DNA of 64,000 nt, from positions 1-64,000 of the forward strand of contig JBGPFC010000001.1 of NCBI GenBank assembly GCA_041483195.1, given 5' to 3'. The position numbers were made by a program, and so were the translations under genes. Each line of letters begins with the position of its first letter. Position 1 is the stretch's first letter. Positions 3,580 through 47,407 of this stretch are shown piece after piece. Under the pieces are notes generated by a model that made no database searches, had not been told where the DNA came from, and worked only from the letters and a program-made list of their open reading frames with translations. This stretch comes from Candidatus Eiseniibacteriota bacterium. Lineage in GTDB: Bacteria > Eisenbacteria > RBG-16-71-46.

Positions 3580-6500
3580 ATGTCCACGCCCCGCCCGGGA
3601 CCTAGCGTCTCCCGCCTCGCGCCGATGGCCCTCGCGGCGCTGGCGCTGGTCGCGTTCACACCCGTCGCGCTCATCGCGCAGACGGTTCGCGGCGACTTCT
3701 ACATCACCAACGGGCAGGTCAACGCGGAGGTGGTGCGCGGCAACACCCTCTACGCCGGCGGCGCGTTCACGCTCGTGGGCCCCGTCACCGGCGCGGGGGT
3801 GCCGGTCGACGCGACCACCGGATTGGCGGTGGTGGGATTCCCGCAGATCAGCGGCAGCGTGTTCGCGGTGGCCTCCGACGGCGCGGGCGGCTGGTTCGTG
3901 GGCGGGCTGTTCACCGCTGTCGACGGCGTCGCGCGCACCAATCTCGCGCACGTCCTCGCGAATCACAGCGTCTCCTCGTGGAATCCCGCCCCCAACGGCG
4001 CGGTGCGCGCGCTGGTGCTCGACGGCAGCACGCTGTTCGTCGCCGGCGACTTCACGACGCTCGCGGCGACGACCCGCAACCGCATCGGCGCGGTGGACGC
4101 CATCACCGGAACCCTCTCGGCGTGGAACCCCAACGCGAATTCCAGCGTGCGCGCCCTCGCGCTCTCGGGCTCGACGCTGTTCGTCGGGGGCCAGTTCACC
4201 AGCATCGGCGGACAGAATCGCAACCGAATCGCCGCGCTCGATACCGGCACCGGGCTCGCCTACCCGGGCTGGAATCCCAACGCGAACAGCCAGGTGCTGA
4301 CGCTGTGGACCGACGAAACATCGCTGCTGGCGGGCGGCCAGTTCACCAACATCGGCGGACAGACGCGCAATCGAATCGCCTCGCTCAGCCTCGCCACCGG
4401 CCTCGCGAACTCCTGGAATCCGAACGCCAACAACCAGGTGCTCTCGATCGCGTCGGACGGCATGGTGGTTTACGCGGGCGGCCAGTTCACCACCATCGGC
4501 GGGCAGGCGCGCAACCGGATCGCCGCCCTTGGCACGACCACCGGCCTGGCCACCGCGTGGAATCCCAATGCCGGAAATCTCGTGCAGGCGATGACGCTCG
4601 ACGACGGCACGCTGTACGCGGGCGGCGACTTTCTCACGATCGGCGGCCAGACCCGCGGGCGCATCGCGGCGCTCTCCACCGCCACCGGTCTCGCGAGCGG
4701 CTGGAATCCGAATGCGTTCAGCACCGTGTCGGCGGTGGCGGCGGCGGGCACGGAGGTGTTCCTGGGCGGGTCCTTCAGCGCGGTCGGCGGCGTGCCGCGC
4801 AACAACCTCGCCGCGTTCGACGTGACCACCGGCGCGCCGACCGCATGGGACCCGAACGCCAACAACCAGGTGCAGGCCCTGCTCGCCACTCCCGACGCGA
4901 TCTATGCGGGCGGCAATTTCTCGCAGATCGGCGGCAAGATCCGCAACAGCATCGCCGCGCTCGATCTCACCAACGGGCTGGCCACCTCGTGGGATCCGAA
5001 TTTCGATGGGCAGGTCTCCGCGCTCGCGTCGGCGAACGGCGTGATCTACGCGGGCGGATTGTTCAGCATGATCGGCGAGGAGCCCCGTCAGAATCTCGCG
5101 GCGCTCGATCCGGTCACCGGGCTCCCGACCCCCTGGGACCCTGGCACCGACGACCAGGTGTTCGCGCTCGCCGCGGGCGCATCCGTCCTCTACGTGGGCG
5201 GCAACTTCAGCGCCGCCGGCGGCCAGGCCCGCAACTTCATCGCAGCGATCGACCCCGCCACCGGGGCGGCCACCGCGTGGGACCCGGATGCGAGTGGAAC
5301 GGTGCGCACCATCGTTCCGACCTGTGATCGGGTCTACGTCGGCGGCTTCTTCACCGACATCGGCATGGTGCCACGCGGCAGGCTCGCGAGCCTCGATCCG
5401 GTCACCGGCCAGCCGCTCGCATGGAATCCCGACGCGAACGGACCGGTATTCGCGCTCGTGCCCTCCTCCGGCGTGATCTACGTGGGCGGCGTGATGAACA
5501 TGTTGGGCAGCACGACGCGCAACCGGATCGCCGCGCTCGACCCTCAGACCGGAGCCGCGACGGCGTGGGATCCGAACTCGGGCGGAACGGTGCGCTCGAT
5601 CGCGGTCGGGAGCGGCGAGGTCTACATCGGCGGCAATTTCACAGGCGTCGACGGCGTCGCCTCCGGCAACCTCGCCGCGATCTCGTCAGACGCCTCGTCG
5701 CCCTGCCCCGCGATCGCGCTCACGCCGCCGCCGCTCGCGGCCGGCGTGGTCGGCACCGCATACTCCTTCACGCCGAGCGCCTCGGGCGGAACGGGCCCCT
5801 ACTGCTGGTCGGTGTCCGCCGGCGCGCCGCCGCCGGGGATCTCGCTCGGCGCCTCGAGCGGACAGCTCTCGGGCACGCCGAGCGCATCCGGCGTTTACGT
5901 CTTCACGCTGGTCGCGACCGACGTCCGCGGCTGCCGCGGAAGCGCGGACTATGCGCTCACCATCACCCCCGTGCCGGCCGTCACGCAGATCGCGGCGAGC
6001 GGCGCCGGGCTCTGCATCAACCCCGCGCGCGCCTGCGTGTCGCTGCCGTTCGTGTTCACGCGCGGCGAGTCAACGGGGCTGCGCGCGGTGAGCGTCACCT
6101 TCCAGCTCGAAGCGGCGAAGCTCGTGCGCTGCGGGGCCACCGCCGCAGCGAGCATTCATCCCGGCGACTGGGCCGCAGCCTTCCCGAATCTCGCGTTCGA
6201 AGTGATCGACAACGGCGGCGGCTCGTACACCGTCGATCAGGTCGTGCTCGGGCAACCGTGCGGCATCGAAGGCGGCGGCACACTGTTCACGATGGATCTC
6301 GCAGCAGCGGGGCCGGACGGCGCGGGAACGGTGAGCGTGACCTCGGTCACCGCTCGCGACTGCGGCAACGCGCCGGTCGGCGTGCTGGCGGGCGCGCCGG
6401 CTTCGATCCTGATCTCGAGCACGCCGATCGTCGTGCTGCCCGCTTCGCTCCCCGCCGCCACCATCGGCGCAGCGTACAGCCAGACTTTCGCGACGACCTC

Positions 6501-9500
6501 CGGAACGCTGCCCATCACGTTCGCGAAGACCGCCGGCGCGCTGCCCGCGGGGCTCGCGCTGACGCAGGCCGGGCTGCTGGCTGGCGTCCCGGCTCAGACC
6601 GGCACGTTCGCGTTCACGGTCACCGCGACCGACGCGGGCGGCTGCACCGGCGCGCGCGCCTGCACGCTCGCGGTGAGCTGTCCCGCGATCGCGATCGCAC
6701 CCGCCCTGCTGCCGGATGGCGCGGTGGACACCGAATACGCACAGACCTTCACGGCTTCGGCGGGGCTCGCGCCCGTCGCCTTCACGGTCTCGGCGGGAAG
6801 CCTGCCGGCGGGTCTGACGCTCTCGGCCGGCGGCCTGCTCTCGGGCACGCCCACCACCTCTGGCACTTCGGTCTTCACCATCCACGTGGCGGATTCTGCC
6901 GGTTGCGCAGCGGAGAACAGCTACACGCTCGACATCTTCGCCACCCCGCCGCTGTCGAGCGTCGCGGCGAACACCGCCGGGCTCGCGATCTCGTCGGCGA
7001 ACCCGTGCGTGAGCGTGCCGTTCGAGTTCACGCGCGGGGAGTCGGCGCTCGCGCTCGGCGTGAGCGTGACCTTCCAGATCGACGCGGCGATGCTGTCGCT
7101 GTGCACCCCGCTCCAGCCCACATCGAGCGTGCACCTCGGTCCGTGGTTCGCGGGCTACACCAACGCGGGCGTCCAGGTCGTCGATCTGGGCGGCGGCGCA
7201 TACACGGTGGACGCTGTGCTGCTCGGCTCGCCGTGCGGCATCACCGGATCGGGCGCGCCGTTCATCGTGGACCTGCGCTCGGTGGCGGGCGACGGCCTGG
7301 GCGCCATCACCGTGACGCGCGTGCACGTTCGCGACTGCGGCAATCAGCCGATCCCGGTGCTGGCCGGCGCGCCGGCGCAATTGCGCATCCTCAACACGCC
7401 GATCGCCCTCACTCCGCCCACGCTGCCCAACGGCTTCATCGCTCAGGCCTACTCGCAGACGATCGCCGCCGAAGCGGGCGCCGCGCCGTTCACGTTCTCG
7501 ATCTCCGCCGGGGCGCTGCCGCCCGGACTCACGCTCTCGCCGGCGGGAGTCCTCGCGGGCACGCCGGGCGCGACCGGCACCTTCCCGTTCACGGTGCACG
7601 TCGCCGACGTGGCGGGCTGCCCGGGCAGCCGGAGCTATTCGCTCAGCGTCTCGTGCTCGCCGTTCGCGGTGCAGCCCGCCACGCTGCCCGACGCGCAGGT
7701 CGGCGTTGCGTACAAGCAGCTCCTCAACACGACCGGCGGGCTCACGCCGATCGCGTGGAGCATCTCCGCCGGAGCGCTGCCCGCGGGGCTCACGCTCTCG
7801 GCGATCACCGGCGAGATCACGGGGACCCCTTCGGCGCCGGGCGTCGGCGTGTTCACGGTCACCGCGACCGACTCGGCCGGCTGCGCGGCGAGCGAGCCCT
7901 ACACGCTGCCGGCCTTCACCGACCCGTTCGTGTCGAGCGTGACCGCGAGCACCGCGGGGCTCTGCCTCTCCGCCACGCGCGCCTGCGTCAGCGTTCCGTT
8001 CGTCTACGCGCGCGGCGAATCGGCGGCGGCGCGCGGCGCGACCGTCACCTTCCACATCGACACCGCGCGCTTCGCGCTCTGCACACCGGGCTCGCCCGCC
8101 TCGAGCATTCACTCCGGCGGCTGGCTCGCGTCCTACTCCAACCCCACCTTCCAGATCAACGACCTCGGCGGCGGCTCATACACCGTCGATCTCGCGCTGC
8201 TCGGCTCGCCCTGCGGGCCGACGCAGGGCGGCGTGCTGTTCACGGCCGACGTGCAGGCGGTGGGCGGCGATGGGCTCGGCAACATCGACGTGACCGAGGT
8301 CCACGTGCGCGATTGCTCGAACGCGCCGCTGCCGGGCGTGCCCGGACCCTCGGCGCAGCTGGTGGTGAGCCACCTCGCGCCGCCCGCGATCTCCGATCTC
8401 GACGCCGCGCAGGTGCTCGCGGGCAACAGCGGCTCGACCACCGGGATCACGGTGACCTGGACCGCGCCGGCGCCCGGGATCGTCAGCCTCTATCGCGCGC
8501 CGTTCGGCAGCTACCCGGAATACGACGACCTCGGCGGCGGCGCGCCGGATTCGGCGCTGGCACCCGGCGCGCCGTGGACGCTGGCGAGCGCCGACGCGCA
8601 GCCGGGTCTCGTCGATCACCCGGACACGCGCGGGTTCTGGCACTACGTCGCGTTCATCACCGACTCGTGCGGCAATCGCTCGGCGGTCTCGAACCGCTCG
8701 CGCGGCGCGCTCGATTACCACCTCGGCGACGTGAGCGACGGCGTCACGATCGGAACCGGCGACGATCGCGTCGCGCTCGAGGACATCTCGCTGCTCGGCG
8801 CGCACTACGGCATCTCGGGCGCCGCGCTGATCACCGACGGGGTCGCCTACCTCGACGTCGGCCCCACCACCGACGGGCAGACTACCTCGCGCCCCGTCAC
8901 CGACGACGCGATCGGCTTCGAGGACCTGATGGTGTTCGCCGCCAACTTCACGGTGGGCTCGGCGCCGCAGGCGGCGTTGCGCCAGGTCGATGCGCCGCGG
9001 GGCGCTGGCGAGGCGTTCGAGGTCGAGGCGCCCTCGCTGGTCGAGCCCGGCGATGGCGTGACCGCGCACCTCCGGCTCATCGCCGGCGGCCGCATGCAGG
9101 GATTCTCCGCGGCGCTCGAGTGGGACGCCTCGGTGGTCACGCCGATCGCGACCGCGAGCGCCGGCTGGATCGAGGCCCAGGGCGGCGTGGTGCTGAGCCC
9201 GAAGCAGGGCGGCATCGACGCGGCGCTGCTCGGGTCGCGCGGCAGCGGCATCGCCGGCTCCGGCGAATTCGCGAGCGTGACTTTCCGCGTGCTGCGCGAG
9301 GGCGACGCCGCGATCCGGCTGCGCCCGGTCGTGGCGCGCGACATCGCCAATCGCACGCTCGATCTCACCTCGCTCACGCGCTCGACCCGCGAGGCCGCGC
9401 CCTCGCACACCACGCTCCTCATGCCGTGGCCCAATCCCGCGCGCGGGGTCGCCACGATCGCGTTCGCGCTCGCGCGCGCGGGCGCCGCCGAGTTGACGCT

Positions 9501-40486: not shown

Positions 40487-41047
40487 TCAGTCTCCCTCGA
40501 CGACAGGCAGCCCCTGGTCGATCCAGTCGTGCTGGAGGTTCTTGGCGATGTTGAGAACCCGGACGTCCGTGAATCCTATCTTGCGCGCGGCCCGAAACGC
40601 CGGGCGTACGTTGGGACAGTCGGCCCAGGGGCAGCAGCCGCAATACAACACCACCGCCTGCTCTCGCGGAATCTTCCGCAGTTCCTGCTGCAAGGCCGCC
40701 AATCCCTCCGGCTTCGAGGCGGGCCCAATGAACCGTGACCCCGGAATGTGTCCGGCTCGGAACAACACCTTGAACCCGACCTGCAGCACCACCGGTCGCT
40801 TTGCTGTCGTGTCGGCGAGGGCTCGCGCGAGGGCTTCGGGTTGGATCAGCTGCCCGGGCTGCGGCGGATCGGTGAGGCTCGACGCCAGGCGCAGCGAGTC
40901 CTCACCGCCCCGGGCTCGCGGGCCGGGTTCGCCGAAGACGGGGCGGTTGATCAGGGCGGGCAGGGCTATGGCGACAGCGGCCAGAGCCCCGAGCAAGACC
41001 GCGTGCAGGCGTGCGCGGAAGGATCGCGCGGACTCGAGGGCCGTCAC
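40487..41047 (-). CDS. Exported rhodanese-like protein
   Basis: GTGA overlap with upstream stop; GHIPGS, VVLYCGCCPWADCPNV, W..QGLPV. Confidence 0.8.
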   Translation of the reverse strand: MTALESARSFRARLHAVLLGALAAVAIALPALINRPVFGEPGPRARGGEDSLRLASSLTDPPQPGQLIQPEALARALADTTAKRPVVLQVGFKVLFRAGHIPGSRFIGPASKPEGLAALQQELRKIPREQAVVLYCGCCPWADCPNVRPAFRAARKIGFTDVRVLNIAKNLQHDWIDQGLPVVEGD

Positions 41048-42201
41048 ATCCAGCCTCGGAGCCAGGATTGCTCCAGCAGCACCTTGCCGAGGTGCCATCG
41101 GCGGGATGGCTTGTCCAAGGACACGGCAGGCAACGGCTCGGCGTAGAAATTGCCCTTGCCGAAGCCGGCCTTGCCGTCTCCCGTTTCGACGAAACACTCG
41201 CCGAAGCCGGTGAAGCGAGCCTCTTCTCCTCGGCCGGTGATGGCTCGCGCGATGTTTTTCGCAACCACCTGGGCCGCGAAGTGAGCGAAGACACCCGCCT
41301 TGGGCAGTGGCTTGCCCAGCTTGAGCGGGACCGAGTTGACGTCCCCGATGGCGTAGACGTTCGGAACGCGCGTCACGAACGTGTTGCGATCCACCTCGAT
41401 CCAGCTCCCTTCCGCGCACAGTCCCGAGTCGCTCACCACGGAAGGCACGTGGTGCGGTGGAACGAATCCGAGCATGCCGTAGGACGCGGCCGCGCCGTTG
41501 GAGAAGTGGATGCTGCGCGCGGCCGGGTCGACACGAGTCACCTGATGCTCGGGTCGATAGTTGATTCCCTTGCCCTCGACCATCTGACGAACGGCCGCAG
41601 AGACGTGGGCCCCCGCCACGCCCATCGGGCCGGGCTCCGCGGTGAACATGTCGACCTGGACATGCTCGCGCACACGCCGCGCACGGCAGGCGGCCTCGAC
41701 CAGCATCGCGGCCTCATACGGCGCGGCCGGGCAGCGATAGGCCGGCGCCGCGGTGAGGATCACGACACGGCCACTGCGCAGCGAGGCAAGCTGGTCGCGG
41801 AAGGCACTCGCTCCTGCGAGGGAGTACAGATCGTGGCCGCCGTCGACCAGACCGGGGATCGCGCTCGCGGCCGTGGCGGCGCCAAGCGCGATCACGATGT
41901 GGTCGGCACTCGAGGTTCGGCCCGCCACCACGACCTCGCGTCGGGCGGCATCGATCCGTTCGATCTCGCCCGTCGTCACCGTCACGCCGCGGTGGACCAG
42001 CCGCCGCAGCGGCCGTGAGATCTGCTCCGGACGGCGCGCCCCGACCAACAGCCAGAGCAGCGACGGCGCGAAGAGGAACGTCTCCTCACGGTTGACGAGG
42101 ACAAGCTCGTGGGTCGCGGGGAGGCGCTTGCGAAGGTCGTTGGCGACCACGATCCCGCCGACTCCACCACCCAGCACGAGAACGCGCTGCGTTCCTCCCA
42201 C
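41044..42201 (-). CDS. Sulfide:quinone oxidoreductase / FCSD-like FAD oxidoreductase
   Basis: VLGGGVGG, YRCPAAPYE, YAIGDV, LPKAGVFA, GECFVETG; GGAGGAG RBS. Confidence 0.85.
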   Translation of the reverse strand: MGGTQRVLVLGGGVGGIVVANDLRKRLPATHELVLVNREETFLFAPSLLWLLVGARRPEQISRPLRRLVHRGVTVTTGEIERIDAARREVVVAGRTSSADHIVIALGAATAASAIPGLVDGGHDLYSLAGASAFRDQLASLRSGRVVILTAAPAYRCPAAPYEAAMLVEAACRARRVREHVQVDMFTAEPGPMGVAGAHVSAAVRQMVEGKGINYRPEHQVTRVDPAARSIHFSNGAAASYGMLGFVPPHHVPSVVSDSGLCAEGSWIEVDRNTFVTRVPNVYAIGDVNSVPLKLGKPLPKAGVFAHFAAQVVAKNIARAITGRGEEARFTGFGECFVETGDGKAGFGKGNFYAEPLPAVSLDKPSRRWHLGKVLLEQSWLRGWM

Positions 42202-42215
42202 GTCTCCTCCCTCGA

Positions 42216-42575
42216 TCAGAAAACGAGCACCTGTTCGCTCGTCGCCGTCCACTCGGTGAGCTCGTCCATCGAGCCTCGGTGCGCGCCCTCGACCAGTTCT
42301 TCCGTCGCGATCCCGCGCGCGTCCATGCAGCTGCCGCAGACCCCGACTGCACCGCCGCGCTTCGTCACGGCGGAGAGCATGTGCTGCACGTTGTAGTAGC
42401 CGGCCGGAACCCGCTGGTTGGCCTTCGCGGCGGAGGCGCCATCACCCAGCAGGAACACCTTGACGCTGACGTTGTCCCGGCGGGCGAGCGACCCGGCGAG
42501 CCGAAGCCCGTTGTACACCCGCTCGCTGCCATAGGGAGCGTCGTTGAGTACGATCAGAAAGCTCGATGCGCTCAT
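42216..42575 (-). CDS. DsrE/YchN family sulfur-relay protein
   Basis: APYGSERVYNGLRLA, VFLLGDG, VCGSCMDARG. Confidence 0.9.
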   Translation of the reverse strand: MSASSFLIVLNDAPYGSERVYNGLRLAGSLARRDNVSVKVFLLGDGASAAKANQRVPAGYYNVQHMLSAVTKRGGAVGVCGSCMDARGIATEELVEGAHRGSMDELTEWTATSEQVLVF

Positions 42576-43253
42576 TCATGCACCTCGTGAAGGGCCCGAC
42601 TCGGTCGGGAGTCCGGCCCCCCGCCATTCGGGAAAGCCCTCGGCCAGCCGCCGCGCGCGAAAGCCCCGCGCCCGCAGCAACTCCACCGCGTGCACCGACA
42701 GCACACAATAGGGACCGCGGCAATACGCCACGATCTCCTTCCGCCTGGGCAGCTTGGCCAGACGTCGCTTGAGGTCTTTGAGCGGGACCGACACGGCCCC
42801 GCGGATATGTCCCGCCGCGTACTCCTCCGGCGGTCGGACATCGAGGATGAGCACGCTCTCCTCGCGCACACGCTTGACCAACTCGCGGCGGGAGACCGGC
42901 TCCAACTGCTCGGGAGAGATGAAGAAGGTGTGGATCAGGTCGTCGACCTCGTCGATCCGTGCTTTCGCCACGCGCCTGAGGATGTGGAGGAGATCGACGA
43001 CCTCGGGCCCGGCAAGCCGGTAGAAGACCCGCGTCCCCTGCCTACGCACGTCGACGAGACGAGCGGCTCGAAGTGCCTGGAGGTGGTGCGAGGTGTTTGC
43101 CGTGGGCAGCCGGGCTTCCGCCGCGAGCACGTCGACGCTGCGCTCACCCTGGGCGAGCAGCTCGAGCAGCTGAATCCGCTGGGCGCTCGAGACCGCCTTC
43201 CCAATGTGAGCGAAGTGCTCGAAGAGCCGCTGGGTAGCTTCCGTTCGATCCAT
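42576..43253 (-). CDS. ArsR/SmtB regulator fused to rhodanese domain
   Basis: RIQLLELLAQGERSV...TSHHLQAL; DVRPPEEYAAGHIRGA, AYCRGPYC. Confidence 0.9.
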   Translation of the reverse strand: MDRTEATQRLFEHFAHIGKAVSSAQRIQLLELLAQGERSVDVLAAEARLPTANTSHHLQALRAARLVDVRRQGTRVFYRLAGPEVVDLLHILRRVAKARIDEVDDLIHTFFISPEQLEPVSRRELVKRVREESVLILDVRPPEEYAAGHIRGAVSVPLKDLKRRLAKLPRRKEIVAYCRGPYCVLSVHAVELLRARGFRARRLAEGFPEWRGAGLPTESGPSRGA

Positions 43254-43257
43254 GGCT

Positions 43258-44043
43258 CTACTCCGGCTTGAGCGCGGTCATCATGACGGCCTTGACCCCA
43301 TACGCTTCAGCTGAGTTCTGCGTCGACTCCTTGCGGAACCGAAACCGCGGGACGACCGCGGATCGGACACGCGTGAAACCGGACTCCTCGAGCAGCCGGA
43401 ACAGCTCTCCCTCCGGGAGAGCGCCGCCGATTCAGCTGGCCCAGAGTTTGGGATCGTTGACGATCGATTGGGAAAGCTGCTTGGCGCTCACGATGTCGGT
43501 GATCGAAATGCGACCGCCCGGCCGGAGCACGCGAAAGATCTCCTCGACGACCCGGCGCTTACGGAACGAGAGGTTGATCACTCCATTGGAGATGACGACA
43601 TCCACCGAGGCCGCGGGCACCGGGATGTCCTCCATGCGCCCGACCTTGCATTCCATCCGGGTCCCGTTCTCTGCCGCGTGCGCCTGGACCTTGAGGCACA
43701 TCGCGGGGTTGAGATCGACACCGATGACCCTGCCGCTTGGGCCAACGCTCCAGGAGGCGATGATCGCGTCGAGGCCAGCCCCGCTCCCGAGATCGAGCAC
43801 CGTCTCTCCCGGCTGCAGGTTGCTTCGCTCGTGCGGATTGCCGACGCCGGCGAACGAGTCGACGGCGCTCGCGGGCGCGCGATCGAGCCACTCTGGCGAG
43901 TAGCCGAACAATTCCGCCGCCTCGCGGCCGTGGAAGAAGTGGAAGGTGCCCTTCGGGTTGTCGGCGACTTCCTGATACATGCGGACGATCTCGTCCTTGA
44001 GCACCGCCTCCAGAGAGGCCTGCGCGTCGACGGAATCAGTCAT
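43258..44043 (-). CDS. ArsM-like SAM methyltransferase, predicted selenoprotein (UGA at 43432-43434), 261 aa
   Basis: VLDLGSGAGLD, RVLRPGG; WAS-UGA-IGGAL matches ArsM W.xC.xGAL; frame continues to TAG at 43258. Confidence 0.85.
43404..43431 (-). promoter_or_regulatory. Bacterial SECIS-like hairpin
   Basis: GCTCTCCC-GGA-GGGAGAGC perfect 8-bp stem starting 9 nt after the UGA, G-initiated loop. Confidence 0.75.
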
Positions 44044-44138
44044 GTCGTGACTCCCCCCGTTCGTGTCCACGAGATCGGCGTGAGATTCGCGCCGCGGCAT
44101 GGCGATCGAGCCCAGGCCGTTCGATCCCTGCTCCTCAA

Positions 44139-44162
44139 GTATTCAAACGTGTACTTGAATAC
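44139..44162. promoter_or_regulatory. Inverted-repeat operator, putative ArsR-rhodanese site
   Basis: GTATTCAA-N8-TTGAATAC upstream of the methyltransferase operon. Confidence 0.65.
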
Positions 44163-44194
44163 CATGCGGACGACGGGTGAGTCAAGCGAGCCGG

Positions 44195-45403
44195 CTAGAA
44201 CATCGGGGTCGGCACGCGCCCCCACCCGGTGCCCGGACCCAGAGGATGGATGTCCAGCAGCACGAGGTTGTGGATGTCCACGTCCGCGAAGAACTGCGGC
44301 TCGCGGGTCGTGTTGATGCCGAAGAGTTGCGCGGGGGTATCGGCCGGCCCGGCGGAATCGATGCGCAGGAAGATCAGCCGGCGGACGACGTCCCCCGGGG
44401 GAGCATTCGGGGCCGACATGCCCGCCATGTCGTGGTGCATCATCGTGTGGCCGCCCTGCAGGTGCCGGAACGGGTGAAAGATCCAATCGGAGATCATCGC
44501 CAGCGTCTGGTGGTGCTGGTAGAGCCGCCACTGCGGCCCGATGTCTGCGATCATCCCCTGCATCACGTACTGCGGGGGCATGAGGTAGACGAGGATGGGC
44601 CCGGTCGTTTGCGAGAGGCGCGACTTCACTTCCGGCAGCTCGAGAACGTCGGCCATCCGGTGCTCGAGCATCATCGCGTCGCCCGGCAGGATGGTCATGG
44701 CCGTGACCCTTCCCTCCGACCACAGTGGCAATCGCGCGATCGTGAATGCGCGCAGGGCGAACGCGCTCCCGACGGCGACCGCGATCAGCAGGATGAAGCC
44801 GACCAGGGGCCGCAGCGCCGGGAAACCCGGCAGCGGCACGCGATCCACGGCCTGCTCCAGCGCGCGCGGGCAGAACCGGCCCGTCCGCTCCATGTAGTCG
44901 CGATACTGGTCGCCGAACTGGTTCAGCATCCGCCGCTCCTCGTCCATCGCCAGCAGGTAGTAGAGCCCGACCATGACGGTCCAGAGGACGACGGTGAGAA
45001 ATCGCGGCCACAGGATGGCCAGCCCGATTCCGGTGAGCGCGAGCGCGACGTATTGCGGATGGCGAATCCAGCGGTAGAGGCCGCCCAGCGCGGGGCCGCG
45101 ACGCAGGAACTGGTGGAAGTAGACCTGCGCCGCGCACGCGAGGAACACGACCGTTCCGCCCACGAAGAGCACCGAGCCCGCGACCCGGACGGCCTTGAGC
45201 ACGATCCCCGGGGGAAGCACCATGTGCGGCATGAAGAACGACGCGAGCCAGCGCGTTGCCGGCGAGTGGGCGAGGAAGAGCAGGAACGGGTTGAAGGCCG
45301 CGTAGAAGAACGCAGCGAACGGGCTGATCATGATCAGCACCTCGAGCGCGATGATGAAGTACAGGACGATGACGCCGCCGAACAGCGGGCGCGACTTGTT
45401 CAA
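44195..45403 (-). CDS. ICMT/PEMT-family membrane methyltransferase with C-terminal soluble extension
   Basis: AAGGAGGAG RBS before TTG; GGLYRWIRHPQY, EERRM..QFG.QY.DY..RT.RF.P. Confidence 0.8.
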   Translation of the reverse strand: MNKSRPLFGGVIVLYFIIALEVLIMISPFAAFFYAAFNPFLLFLAHSPATRWLASFFMPHMVLPPGIVLKAVRVAGSVLFVGGTVVFLACAAQVYFHQFLRRGPALGGLYRWIRHPQYVALALTGIGLAILWPRFLTVVLWTVMVGLYYLLAMDEERRMLNQFGDQYRDYMERTGRFCPRALEQAVDRVPLPGFPALRPLVGFILLIAVAVGSAFALRAFTIARLPLWSEGRVTAMTILPGDAMMLEHRMADVLELPEVKSRLSQTTGPILVYLMPPQYVMQGMIADIGPQWRLYQHHQTLAMISDWIFHPFRHLQGGHTMMHHDMAGMSAPNAPPGDVVRRLIFLRIDSAGPADTPAQLFGINTTREPQFFADVDIHNLVLLDIHPLGPGTGWGRVPTPMF

Positions 45404-45432
45404 GGATCTCCTCCTTCGGAACTGATCCGCTC

Positions 45433-45927
45433 CTACTTCGACTTTCTTCGCCGGCCGTTCTGGAGCCTCGCGAGCGCGTGCACGTGCCTGCGAATCGGGG
45501 CCTGCTGCCCCCAGCTTTCGAGCAACCGGGCAGGCCTGCCTCTCGGCGTGCGCGCGAGCCTCGCATCCCACTCCCCGAGCATCGTGCGCATCTGATCGCG
45601 CAGCAGCGCGAGGTCCCGGAGCTGGGCTTCGATGGATTCGAGCTTGGCGGCGGCCAGGGCTCGCACCTCGCGGCAGGGCGTTCCACCACGGTCCCTGATG
45701 CGCATGAGCCGCGCGAGCTCGTCGAGCGTGAATCCAACCGCGAGAGCGCGCTGTACGAGGTGGACGCGCCCGGGCGCCTGCGCGTCGTACTCGCGGTAGC
45801 CGTTCGGCGAGCGGCGCGACGCGAGCAGCCCCTTGCGCTCGTAGTGGCGCAGGGTGTCCTTGCTGAGCCCGGTCTTGCGGGCCAGCTCCCCCGCGCGCAA
45901 CGGACCGGGCGGTCCATCTTCGCTCAT
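45433..45927 (-). CDS. MerR family regulator (ZntR/CueR-like)
   Basis: LRAGELARKTG...TLRHYERKGLL...NGYREY, GFTLDEL, PCREV. Confidence 0.9.
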   Translation of the reverse strand: MSEDGPPGPLRAGELARKTGLSKDTLRHYERKGLLASRRSPNGYREYDAQAPGRVHLVQRALAVGFTLDELARLMRIRDRGGTPCREVRALAAAKLESIEAQLRDLALLRDQMRTMLGEWDARLARTPRGRPARLLESWGQQAPIRRHVHALARLQNGRRRKSK

Positions 45928-45934
45928 GGGCCGG

Positions 45935-45966
45935 ACTCTAGACCATGGAACTCATTCCATGGTCAA
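45935..45966 (-). promoter_or_regulatory. MerR-type long-spacer promoter with dyad operator
   Basis: TTGACC-20 bp-TAGAGT with perfect GACCATGGAA-N4-TTCCATGGTC; ATG 7 nt below the -10. Confidence 0.85.
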
Positions 45967-45997
45967 GGGCTCAGATCCGCGCTGGCGCTGAGCTGAT

Positions 45998-47407
45998 CTA
46001 CCTGGCTACGACGAGCTTCTGTATCCGCGAGACGTCCCTTGCCTGCATCCGGACGAAGTACACGCCCGACTTCAGGGGGCGACCGTCCGAATCCCTGCCA
46101 TCCCACGCGAGCACATGCTCACCGGCTGACTCGGCCCGATCCTGCAGCCGGATCACTTCGCGCCCCGCGATGTCCACCACCGCCAATCGCGCACGGCCCG
46201 CGCCGGGCAGCGCGTAGCGCAACGTCGCGCCGGCGTACGTCGGATTGGGCTCGGGCGCGCGCAACTCGAAGCCGCGCGCCGGGGCGAGCGCCTGCTCCAC
46301 CGCGGTCACAGGCGCGGGCGTCAGCACCATGGCCCGAGTGAAGGTCGTACGGAGCGCATCGCCCACGATCTGGCCCGCGTCGTTGATCTCGTCGGCATAC
46401 GTGAGGACGTACCCGGTGCCCGGGGCGATCAGGGAGTTGAGATCCTGCGGCGGGCCGCTCGCCGAGAACAGCGTCGCGCGCGATGCGTCGCCGGGGAGCG
46501 TGGAGTACCCCACGATTTCACCCGACCCATTGATTCCGAGCGCCTAGCTGCTCAGTGCACCGTCGAGCATTCCCAGATCGGTTGCCGAAAGTCCCACCCA
46601 GAGAGTCGCCCGCGACTCGCTCCCCGACTTGGAATAGCCGACGACATCGCCCTGGTTGTCGACGCCGATCGCGTCGGATTCCGAGAATCCTGCCAGTGGT
46701 GGAAGCTCGTCGATACTCGTCCCATGCAGCCTGAACCCACGAATCTGCCCCAGCATGTTGGCTCCGTAGCCGCAAATCTCGGAGCCGTCGTTGGAGATTG
46801 CGCTGGCCACGCTGAAGTAGCCCCCCAGGTTGGGCAGGAACGCGCTCGACCCTTCGCTCCATTTCATGGCGTGCCCCGGGCTGCTGACACACTGGGGGTA
46901 GCCGCAACCGCTCGTGAGATTGGTCCAGCCCACGACCACTCCCGAGTCCGAGATGCTGTAACCGTACGAGTCGCCCGCACCGGCCGGCTTGGGAAGGTCG
47001 AGGAGAGCCCCGCCGGGCGCCTGATGGGCGGCCGTGGCGAATCCGTTGGACTGCGTCAGCCCGAAACCGCACAAGGCCCCGTCGCTGTTCACGTCGGTCG
47101 CGGCACTGAGGAGCGAAACCACGAGCGCGCCCTCGTCGGTCATGCCGCCGGAGCTGGTCCAGCGGAAGACATGGCCTGCCGAACCATCGGTGGCGGCCCA
47201 GCCGACCACCAATCCGGCATTGTTGATTCCGGTCGCTTCAGACGTGCCGGTCGTGTCGGTTCGTAGCGTGCCGAGAACAGTGAGGTCGTACGACGAGGCT
47301 TCTGCCCTCGCTGCCGACAAGGCAAGCAGGCATATCATCGGGCAAAGAACTCGGGTGGATTTGTTCGGAGCGGGCTGTGAACCCGGGCTCAAGCCTCGAG
47401 CGATCAT
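45998..47407 (-). pseudogene. HAF-repeat secreted protein with FlgD-Ig/T9SS-like tail, interrupted by in-frame TAG at 46544-46546
   Basis: SEATGINNAG.VVG-type repeats; SS*ALGINGSGEIVG continues in the same frame to the tail. Confidence 0.8.

Follow-up and report, generated by a model that had tools for sequence, protein, structure and literature searches.

A predicted selenocysteine-containing ArsM-like methyltransferase, truncated in its public gene model, in a Candidatus Eiseniibacteriota genome

The first 64,000 nucleotides of contig JBGPFC010000001.1 (assembly GCA_041483195.1) of a Candidatus Eiseniibacteriota bacterium, here called the window, encode on the - strand an ArsM-like S-adenosylmethionine (SAM) methyltransferase (43258..44043, 261 residues including U204, as established by translation with TGA read as U, Pfam domains and solved ArsM chains). 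Its in-frame UGA (43432..43434, - strand; codon 204) lies at the third As(III)-binding Cys column of ArsM within the motif U-I-G-G (that is, UxxG), and to judge from its conservation in relatives it is almost certainly decoded as selenocysteine (Sec), which would make this a genuine selenoprotein gene. The protein adds a new, so far unannotated member to a known family of selenoproteins, and its public gene model is wrongly truncated. Considered as a whole, the locus very probably encodes, within an operon, a Sec204 methyltransferase of the ArsM superfamily, decoded with the aid of a selenocysteine insertion sequence (SECIS) and belonging to a sister branch of ArsM that keeps only the third cysteine position.

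The gene starts with an ATG at 44043-44041 (- strand), with GGGAG 8 nt upstream. Under translation table 11 its frame ends ...KLWAS at TGA 43434-43432 (- strand); past this TGA the frame runs on as IGGALPEGELFRLLEESGF...ALKPE until TAG 43260-43258 ends the gene, and the peptide across the predicted Sec residue reads LWAS-U-IGGALPEGELFR. Translation with TGA as U gives a protein with a single in-frame TGA and no extra domain, in which Pfam recognizes Methyltransf_31 (5.1e-25) as well as Methyltransf_25 and Methyltransf_11, a class-I SAM-binding domain, and the SAM motif VLDLGSGAGLD is one common to ArsM. These features had been pointed out in a preliminary description of the window, which proposed a hidden selenoprotein, and on re-reading all of its coordinates and letters proved correct. 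In public databases, 116 of the 120 best protein matches are exactly 203 aa long, and the four inspected end ...KLWAS; hundreds of public gene calls end at residue 203 and so are missing the catalytic residue as well as the 57 residues that close the protein. The sole full-length protein among the 120 best matches (P0002, JGI metagenome, 271 aa, 75% identical) has W at the Sec column, which is probably a TGA translated by the gene caller with another table, because the 80 closest metagenome relatives of P0002 all carry TGA. No RNA run was listed as containing the methyltransferase stretch.

Decisive for recoding is the comparative evidence, namely TGA in 160 of 160 fetched relatives together with covariation in the stem of the hairpin that follows. 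Eight of the 41 related genomes searched (a set that serves for the tallies of both the Sec methyltransferase and SelA, and includes one unpublished genome, G026) have a homologue of full length that contains one in-frame TGA and no more, at protein identities as low as 40%; the eight split into group A, at 79-100% identity, and group B, at 40-46%. In one further genome, G029, the homologue is of the canonical three-cysteine type and has TGC at the Sec column. A scan of species-representative genomes gave 253 relatives, of which the best 80 (79-93% identity, nearly all of them carrying the label Gemmatimonadota or that of neighbouring bins of metagenome-assembled genomes) were inspected, and TGA stands at the codon in all 80; the same is true of the best 80 metagenome loci gathered with P0002 as the query (75-83% identity to P0002). 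Of 206 genomes sampled from the phylum, 24 gave a total of 25 matches that bear the TGA, so that the Sec form, present in about one in eight of the sampled genomes, can be considered common. Across 83 distinct sequences, the 57 codons downstream of the TGA stay free of stops and vary freely at synonymous sites while the protein sequence is conserved. Cys occupies the Sec column in G029 and in the 29 V-G-C and 71 C-C-C representatives of the census described below. The preliminary claim of a hidden selenoprotein is thereby sustained, with the TGA conserved to 40% protein identity and the frame beyond it conserved as well, and the expectation that an alignment of homologues would place Cys at this column was borne out.

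The putative bacterial SECIS apical hairpin, GCUCUCCC-GGA-GGGAGAGC (43404..43422, - strand), has a loop that begins 18 nt after the UGA. The TGA is followed by 9 nt (ATCGGCGGC), then GCTCTCCC at 43422-43415, GGA at 43414-43412 and GGGAGAGC at 43411-43404, and RNAfold predicts GCTCTCCC-GGA-GGGAGAGC as a hairpin of -13.6 kcal/mol on its own. The bacterial SECIS model has a loop of 3-9 nt with G within the first two positions, a stem of 4-16 bp, a distance of 16-37 nt between UGA and loop, and an energy of at most -7.5 kcal/mol (PMC13188914). With a 3-nt loop, G first, a stem of 7-8 bp, a spacing of 17 nt and -13.6 kcal/mol, the hairpin lies within every one of these limits, and it also covaries, so the SECIS-like hairpin noticed at the outset is upheld. 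Of the 84,461 TGA triplets in the whole genome, 55 are followed at 16-19 nt by the GGA loop of a hairpin of 5 bp or more; 35 of the 55 are in an open frame, the stems of 3 of these 35 reach at least 8 bp, and only the methyltransferase and selD have a protein-like translation among the 35.

The GGA loop is invariant in the 83 distinct sequences and also in 77 of 77 distinct versions of a 43-nt segment. Among the 83 sequences, the pair that closes the loop is U-A in 44, C-G in 32 and U-G in 7 (42, 29 and 6, respectively, among the 77 versions of the shorter segment), and the second stem pair is C-G in 75, G-C in 7 and U-G in 1. Two stem pairs vary on both sides, in 39 cells. The stem covariation score is 0.168, versus 0.075 in shuffles (0 of 500 reach it), and every slid register gives a lower value. 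In 74 of the 83 sequences a G.A mismatch stands where the window has its outermost G-C pair, and the conserved stem is for that reason taken as 7 bp. Synonymous sites in the hairpin codons are frozen (GCT in 82 of 83, CTC in 82 of 83, GGA in 83 of 83 and GAG in 81 of 82), with a third-position entropy of 0-0.14 bits at codons +4, +5, +6, +8 and +9 after the UGA. Codon +7 reaches 1.0 bit because the third base of its GAA/GAG covaries with the closing pair, and the four-fold sites of flanking Gly, Leu, Ala and Arg codons have 1.5-2.0 bits. The encoded residues are GALPEGE or GALLEGE in group A and GALLEAE in group B, which is to say that the residues differ and the pairing is kept; the Cys form of G029 is without the hairpin.

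The genome encodes the machinery for Sec insertion, which the preliminary description had proposed to look for: selA (455 bits), selB (353 bits), selD (349 bits, with one TGA) and a tRNA-SeC with anticodon tca are all present. The selD gene (G000:C9:87663-88583, locus L010) itself belongs to a selenoprotein (...ACAG-U-ASKLGPEDL), and 12 nt past its UGA comes GGUCC-GGA-GGACC, which puts the GGA loop at +18, just where the methyltransferase has it; the selD hairpin is an internal positive control for that of the methyltransferase. Long open reading frames (ORFs) of the genome (n=1,434) end in TGA in 979 cases, in TAG in 399 and in TAA in 56, and because TGA is the commonest ordinary stop the genetic code is not reassigned. 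The notion that the Sec trait is kept solely for the methyltransferase was rejected, as SelA is found in 38 of the 41 relatives and the Sec methyltransferase in 8. No formate dehydrogenase selenoprotein was found in the genome, and other selenoproteins must therefore exist, of which selD is the one that turned up.

Two other accounts of the TGA were considered. If it were a true stop, the gene would encode a 203-residue truncated enzyme or be a pseudogene, with the downstream frame a remnant, as the public gene calls and the predominance of TGA among the stops of this genome might suggest; this is very improbable, given that the residues beyond the TGA align to solved ArsM structures, that their 57 codons change freely at synonymous sites and are conserved as protein in the 83 distinct sequences, that relatives have Cys at this column, that the hairpin covaries, and that a remnant would not persist across 160 of 160 loci. 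It is more improbable still that the TGA arose through faulty sequencing or assembly, or that it codes for Trp or Gly under another genetic code. The W of P0002 is the one observation in favour of such an error or recoding, but TGA is found in all 160 independent loci, the 80 closest relatives of P0002 included. Contigs of four further sediment-metagenome runs (X2-X5) cover the codon and give the same letters, with no other letter listed; TGC, TGT or TGG at 43432-43434, which the preliminary description had named as grounds for abandoning the idea, was not seen in them. A code with Trp or Gly at TGA is at odds with the many long ORFs here that end in TGA, and the relatives have Cys, not Trp.

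The best solved relatives of the methyltransferase are arsenite methyltransferases (E = 4e-25), aligned from residue 56 to residues 229-231 and hence across the TGA. U204 aligns with the Cys of ...GEC-LGGAL in the solved ArsM chains, V67 (FAGVGNP) with the Cys of GCGNP (5evj), and G154 (SNGVINL) with the first Cys of SNCV-NLS. Numbered by the chains of the matched structures, the second and third columns correspond to Cys174 and Cys224 of CmArsM, and its first As(III)-binding cysteine is numbered Cys72. The three As(III)-binding cysteines of canonical ArsM are thus represented by V67, G154 and U204, and the departure holds throughout the branch to which the protein belongs. NF008823, the curated ArsM model, gives the methyltransferase 202.1 bits, below its cut-off of 263, and likewise 12 of 12 relatives of the V-G type (179-220 bits), whereas canonical ArsMs, including a paralogue in the same genome, pass with 279-501 bits. 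That paralogue is part of a canonical ArsR and ArsM pair elsewhere in the genome (G000:C50, L015 966-1310 and 1336-2160), in which the ArsR has the motifs CNCGDIVC and CYC and the ArsM has CCGDGCGCG, GLGCGNP, SNCVVNL and VGCVAGA.

A census of the branch was taken from the 150 best representatives in a library clustered at 50% identity, 16 of 151 rows being dropped for more than 15% gaps and 135 entering a tree (FastTree, 159 columns, midpoint-rooted, read for topology alone). At the three columns, 71 of the 135 rows have C-C-C, 29 have V-G-C and 19 end just before the third column; in these 19 the second column is always Gly, and the first is a residue other than Cys in 18 (P0125 has Cys there), and a few rows have another residue at the third (G, R, E or W). 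The C-C-C rows group in a single clade, at whose base stand two V-G rows, and in the V-G part of the tree the truncated (presumed Sec) and Cys forms are interleaved. By sequence, the protein falls in a large branch, sister to canonical ArsM, that has Val or Thr, Gly, and Cys or Sec at the three columns. Residues conserved specifically in this branch are V26, P30, H35, F36, G39, S63-F64-A65, G154 and L200, and an FHF..G motif, with H35 in 90% of 58 rows, stands in place of the N-terminal Cys-rich stretch. The replacement of the two other ArsM cysteines, correctly noted in the preliminary description, is a conserved trait of the whole branch; the further statement that Sec is the only conserved nucleophile holds insofar as both of those cysteines are lost branch-wide, but not for H35, which is conserved too. 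Some V-G relatives are fusion proteins (P0137, P0145, P0144, P0180, P0136, P0157, P0201, P0226, P0231 and P0256): relatives of the Cys type are joined to TusA (two), a DsbA-like Thioredoxin_5 domain (two), MerC (one) or a ChaC-like gamma-glutamylcyclotransferase (one), and four others, each of which ends at the Sec column, to DUF2652.

Catalogues have listed Sec-containing arsenite methyltransferases since 2007-2008, and to a selenoprotein specialist the find is unsurprising. The literature records 8 GOS sequences of a selenoprotein family named "arsenite S-adenosylmethyltransferase" (PRK11873) (PMC2398784), a Sec arsenite methyltransferase family of 41 proteins in 39 organisms (PMC5029168), and the same family, with the motif UxxG, in the experimentally verified group of a table (table 1) that credits it to Fomenko et al. 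2007 (PMC13188914), in agreement with the remark in the preliminary description that Sec forms of ArsM-like proteins had been reported. The window protein shares with this catalogued family (PRK11873/NF008823 type) the fold, the position of Sec in UxxG and a SECIS right after the UGA; it differs in falling below the NF008823 cut-off and in being publicly truncated at 203 aa. With canonical ArsM/AS3MT (C. merolae 4fr0, 4kw7 and 5eg5; 5evj) it shares the Rossmann and substrate-binding domains and the third column (as Sec), but it has Val and Gly at the first two columns, the FHF..G N-terminus, a place in a separate clade, and a gene context with an adjacent ArsR-family regulator and no ars genes among the neighbours examined. 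Three fused ArsM-type selenoprotein families are attributed to Haft and Tolstoy 2025 (PMC13188914). The window protein, matching with its methyltransferase part, scores far below the cut-offs of NF047649 (methyltransferase/UXPK-star, 185.2 bits versus 460), NF041537 (ArsM/AhpD, 203.2 versus 510) and NF041536 (ArsM/DUF2284, 176.9 versus 575), and unlike these it carries a single Sec, lacks a second domain and ends in ALKPE, without a UXPK C-terminus. The three models score canonical and V-G-type proteins alike.

The methyltransferase is the first of four genes packed on one strand. An ArsR/SmtB helix-turn-helix and rhodanese fusion of 225 aa (42576..43253, - strand; Pfam HTH_5 and Rhodanese, HTH_metalloreg 73.4 bits), with the rhodanese cysteine motif YCRGPYC, starts at ATG 43253, 4 nt past the methyltransferase stop. 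It is abutted by the gene of a DsrE/TusD-like sulfur-carrier protein of 119 aa (42216..42575, - strand; Pfam DsrE 4.3e-22), which is overlapped in turn by that of a flavoprotein of about 400 aa resembling sulfide:quinone reductase (SQR) (41044..42252, - strand, start uncertain; Pfam Pyr_redox_2 and FCSD_central; NCBIfam type III SQR 213.6 bits, below the cut-off of 525). The 150-nt gap upstream of the methyltransferase contains a perfect palindrome, GTATTCAA-N8-TTGAATAC (44139..44162), a candidate operator for the ArsR-rhodanese; perfect TATTCAA-N8-TTGAATA occurs once in the 64-kb window, and the palindrome overlaps a -10-like TATTCA that lies 18 nt after TTGACT (44185-44180).

Parts of this arrangement recur in relatives. 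The ArsR-rhodanese adjoins the Sec methyltransferase in five genomes (G008, G014, G007, G144 and G120), and the DsrE-like gene is kept after the ArsR-rhodanese in G008, G120 and L049. The order of the window (methyltransferase, regulator, DsrE, SQR) is shared with G008 and L049/G120; group B has regulator, methyltransferase, a persulfide-dioxygenase-like rhodanese-MBL protein and an MFS transporter (G014 and G007), and in G144 regulator and methyltransferase are adjacent and followed by a short MFS-like fragment, with no rhodanese-MBL match. Elsewhere regulator and methyltransferase are divergent (L078 and L114), or the order is regulator, DsrE, SQR, methyltransferase (L068 and L120). Sequences closely similar to the palindrome occupy the same position in G008 and L049, and related palindromes precede the methyltransferase or the ArsR-rhodanese in L041, L049, L046, L068, L078 and L114; they stand before the ArsR-rhodanese in G007 and L068, whereas those of L078 and L114 lie in the intergenic region between the divergent genes. 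A different setting is seen in L242 (G194, 6179-8172), where a group-B Sec methyltransferase is followed by a 205-aa SAM methyltransferase and a plain ArsR-family regulator and preceded by an HMA-domain protein.

Expression of the Sec enzyme could proceed as follows. SelB carrying Sec-tRNA would bind the GGA-loop hairpin, which lies within the next nine codons, while the ribosome stands at the UGA. Sec204 would face the methyl group of SAM, as the homologous ArsM cysteine does, and as the single soft nucleophile it would hold the substrate through one Se-X bond next to that methyl group. The methyltransferase would be the first gene of an operon repressed by the ArsR-rhodanese at the palindrome, with repression lifted when the rhodanese cysteine (YCRGPYC) is modified.

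The substrate may, tentatively, be a chalcogen species, either sulfane sulfur/sulfide or selenide, which the enzyme would methylate to give a volatile or exportable product, and not arsenite bound by the classical mechanism with three cysteines. A chalcogen role is favoured because of the ArsR-rhodanese/DsrE/SQR context, the fusions of the TusA type and the separate canonical ArsR-ArsM pair. The proposal in the preliminary description that sulfur or selenium replaces arsenic as substrate draws circumstantial support from this gene context and these domain fusions, and meets a counterexample in a published single-cysteine arsenite methylase (PMC8649762). A fuller version, in which the whole single-Sec/Cys branch consists of chalcogen methyltransferases that are not arsenic enzymes and the ArsR-rhodanese acts as a switch via TATTCAA-N8-TTGAATA, is speculative and somewhat doubtful. 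Under it, rhodanese, DsrE or TusA-type carriers would deliver sulfane sulfur or selenium to Sec204 as an Se-S or Se-Se adduct; SAM would provide the methyl group, and methanethiol or methylselenol would be set free. If true, this would be a previously unrecognised route to volatile sulfur or selenium, widespread in sediment and soil Gemmatimonadota. The H2S/methanethiol S-methyltransferases MddA, MddH and MddM1/2 resemble the window protein in candidate activity, SAM-dependent methylation of a small chalcogen nucleophile, but they are of different families, and their accounts, compared here by description and as far as available, are without ArsM or selenium (PMC11445057, PMC12904073). In the available parts of the literature on ArsM cysteine loss, selenium methylation and MddH, no description of the function of the V-G branch was found. 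The recurrent linkage to a rhodanese regulator, DsrE, SQR and persulfide-dioxygenase-like proteins offers a lead to the real substrate.

The enzyme might instead be a true arsenite or methylarsenite methyltransferase, in which Sec204 together with His35 or other ligands binds As(III) and arsenic is detoxified. The best matches are ArsM structures and ArsM models, selenoprotein catalogues file such proteins as arsenite methyltransferases, and a regulator of the ArsR family adjoins the gene. Set against this are the replacement of two of the three As(III) ligands throughout the branch, scores below the curated ArsM cut-off that canonical paralogues pass, and the canonical ArsR-ArsM pair that the genome already has. 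No ars genes were seen among the neighbours examined (80 species-representative loci and 10 scanned loci), and no arsenic-resistance families among the 31 neighbour ORFs of the 10 scanned loci, where the genes were unrelated. The arsenite methylase of Thermus thermophilus, TtArsM, is a precedent to be weighed: it is ArsM-like and is reported to work with a single cysteine, possibly aided by two His (PMC8649762), and H35, conserved in the branch as noted, could act like its His. It differs from the window protein, by that same description, in that its lone cysteine, Cys77, lies in the N-terminal part at a different position conserved in all ArsMs, and in having no Sec (PMC8649762). An arsenite enzyme seems rather unlikely.

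The single-cysteine precedent of TtArsM and the conservation of H35 tell against the explanation preferred here, that of a Sec204 enzyme encoded in an operon and perhaps acting on something other than arsenite, and several further observations do so as well. Sec insertion is deduced from sequence. For GC-rich DNA the 76-nt stretch folds with an unremarkable energy (z = 0.10, with 95 of 200 shuffles folding as well), and for this reason the hairpin alone is weak evidence. The promoter in the 150-nt gap is a prediction read by eye, so described because a consensus promoter scan of 40900-46100 listed no sigma-70-like site. None of the neighbours seen in the window occurs within 4 kb in 69 of the 80 species-representative loci, and no universal neighbour emerged from flank-ORF clustering, which gave at most 8 of 80 loci per real neighbour. 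Finally, the ArsR-type regulators and the HMA protein found nearby fit metal or metalloid stress as well as they fit sulfur. Whatever the substrate, surveys that take arsM as a marker of arsenic methylation may count members of the V-G branch, which lack two of the three arsenic ligands and score below the curated threshold.

Upstream of the palindrome-controlled unit, and outside it, lie the genes of a PEMT/ICMT-type membrane methyltransferase (44195..45571, - strand, start uncertain; Pfam PEMT 1.1e-6) and a MerR-family regulator (45433-45927, - strand). The membrane protein scores below the cut-offs for isoprenylcysteine methyltransferase (57.1 bits) and MddA (22.2 bits versus 270, the sole MddA-like signal). 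Participation of these two genes in the system was considered and is unsupported, neither being beside the methyltransferase gene in the loci of the 8 relatives; among the 80 species-representative loci the membrane methyltransferase is beside the gene in 0 and MerR in 1. Inside the methyltransferase coding sequence, downstream of the Sec codon, a terminator-like CCGCGG-TCGTC-CCGCGG is followed by TTTCGGTT (43345-43361, - strand); it is probably due to chance, because 3 such sites are found in 40900-46100 versus 2.0 expected.

The rhodanese-MBL gene that follows the group-B Sec methyltransferase in G014 (L045:1485-2660; GloB/persulfide-dioxygenase-like) likely encodes a second selenoprotein of the same operon. 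It has an in-frame TGA (L045 1929-1931) in the motif TGKG-U-LSYLV, and its orthologue in G007 (L046 ~3820-4908) has TGC (Cys) at that column. A hairpin, CGCUUCCG-GUG-CGGAAGCG, stands 14 nt past this TGA, with its loop 22 nt after the UGA.

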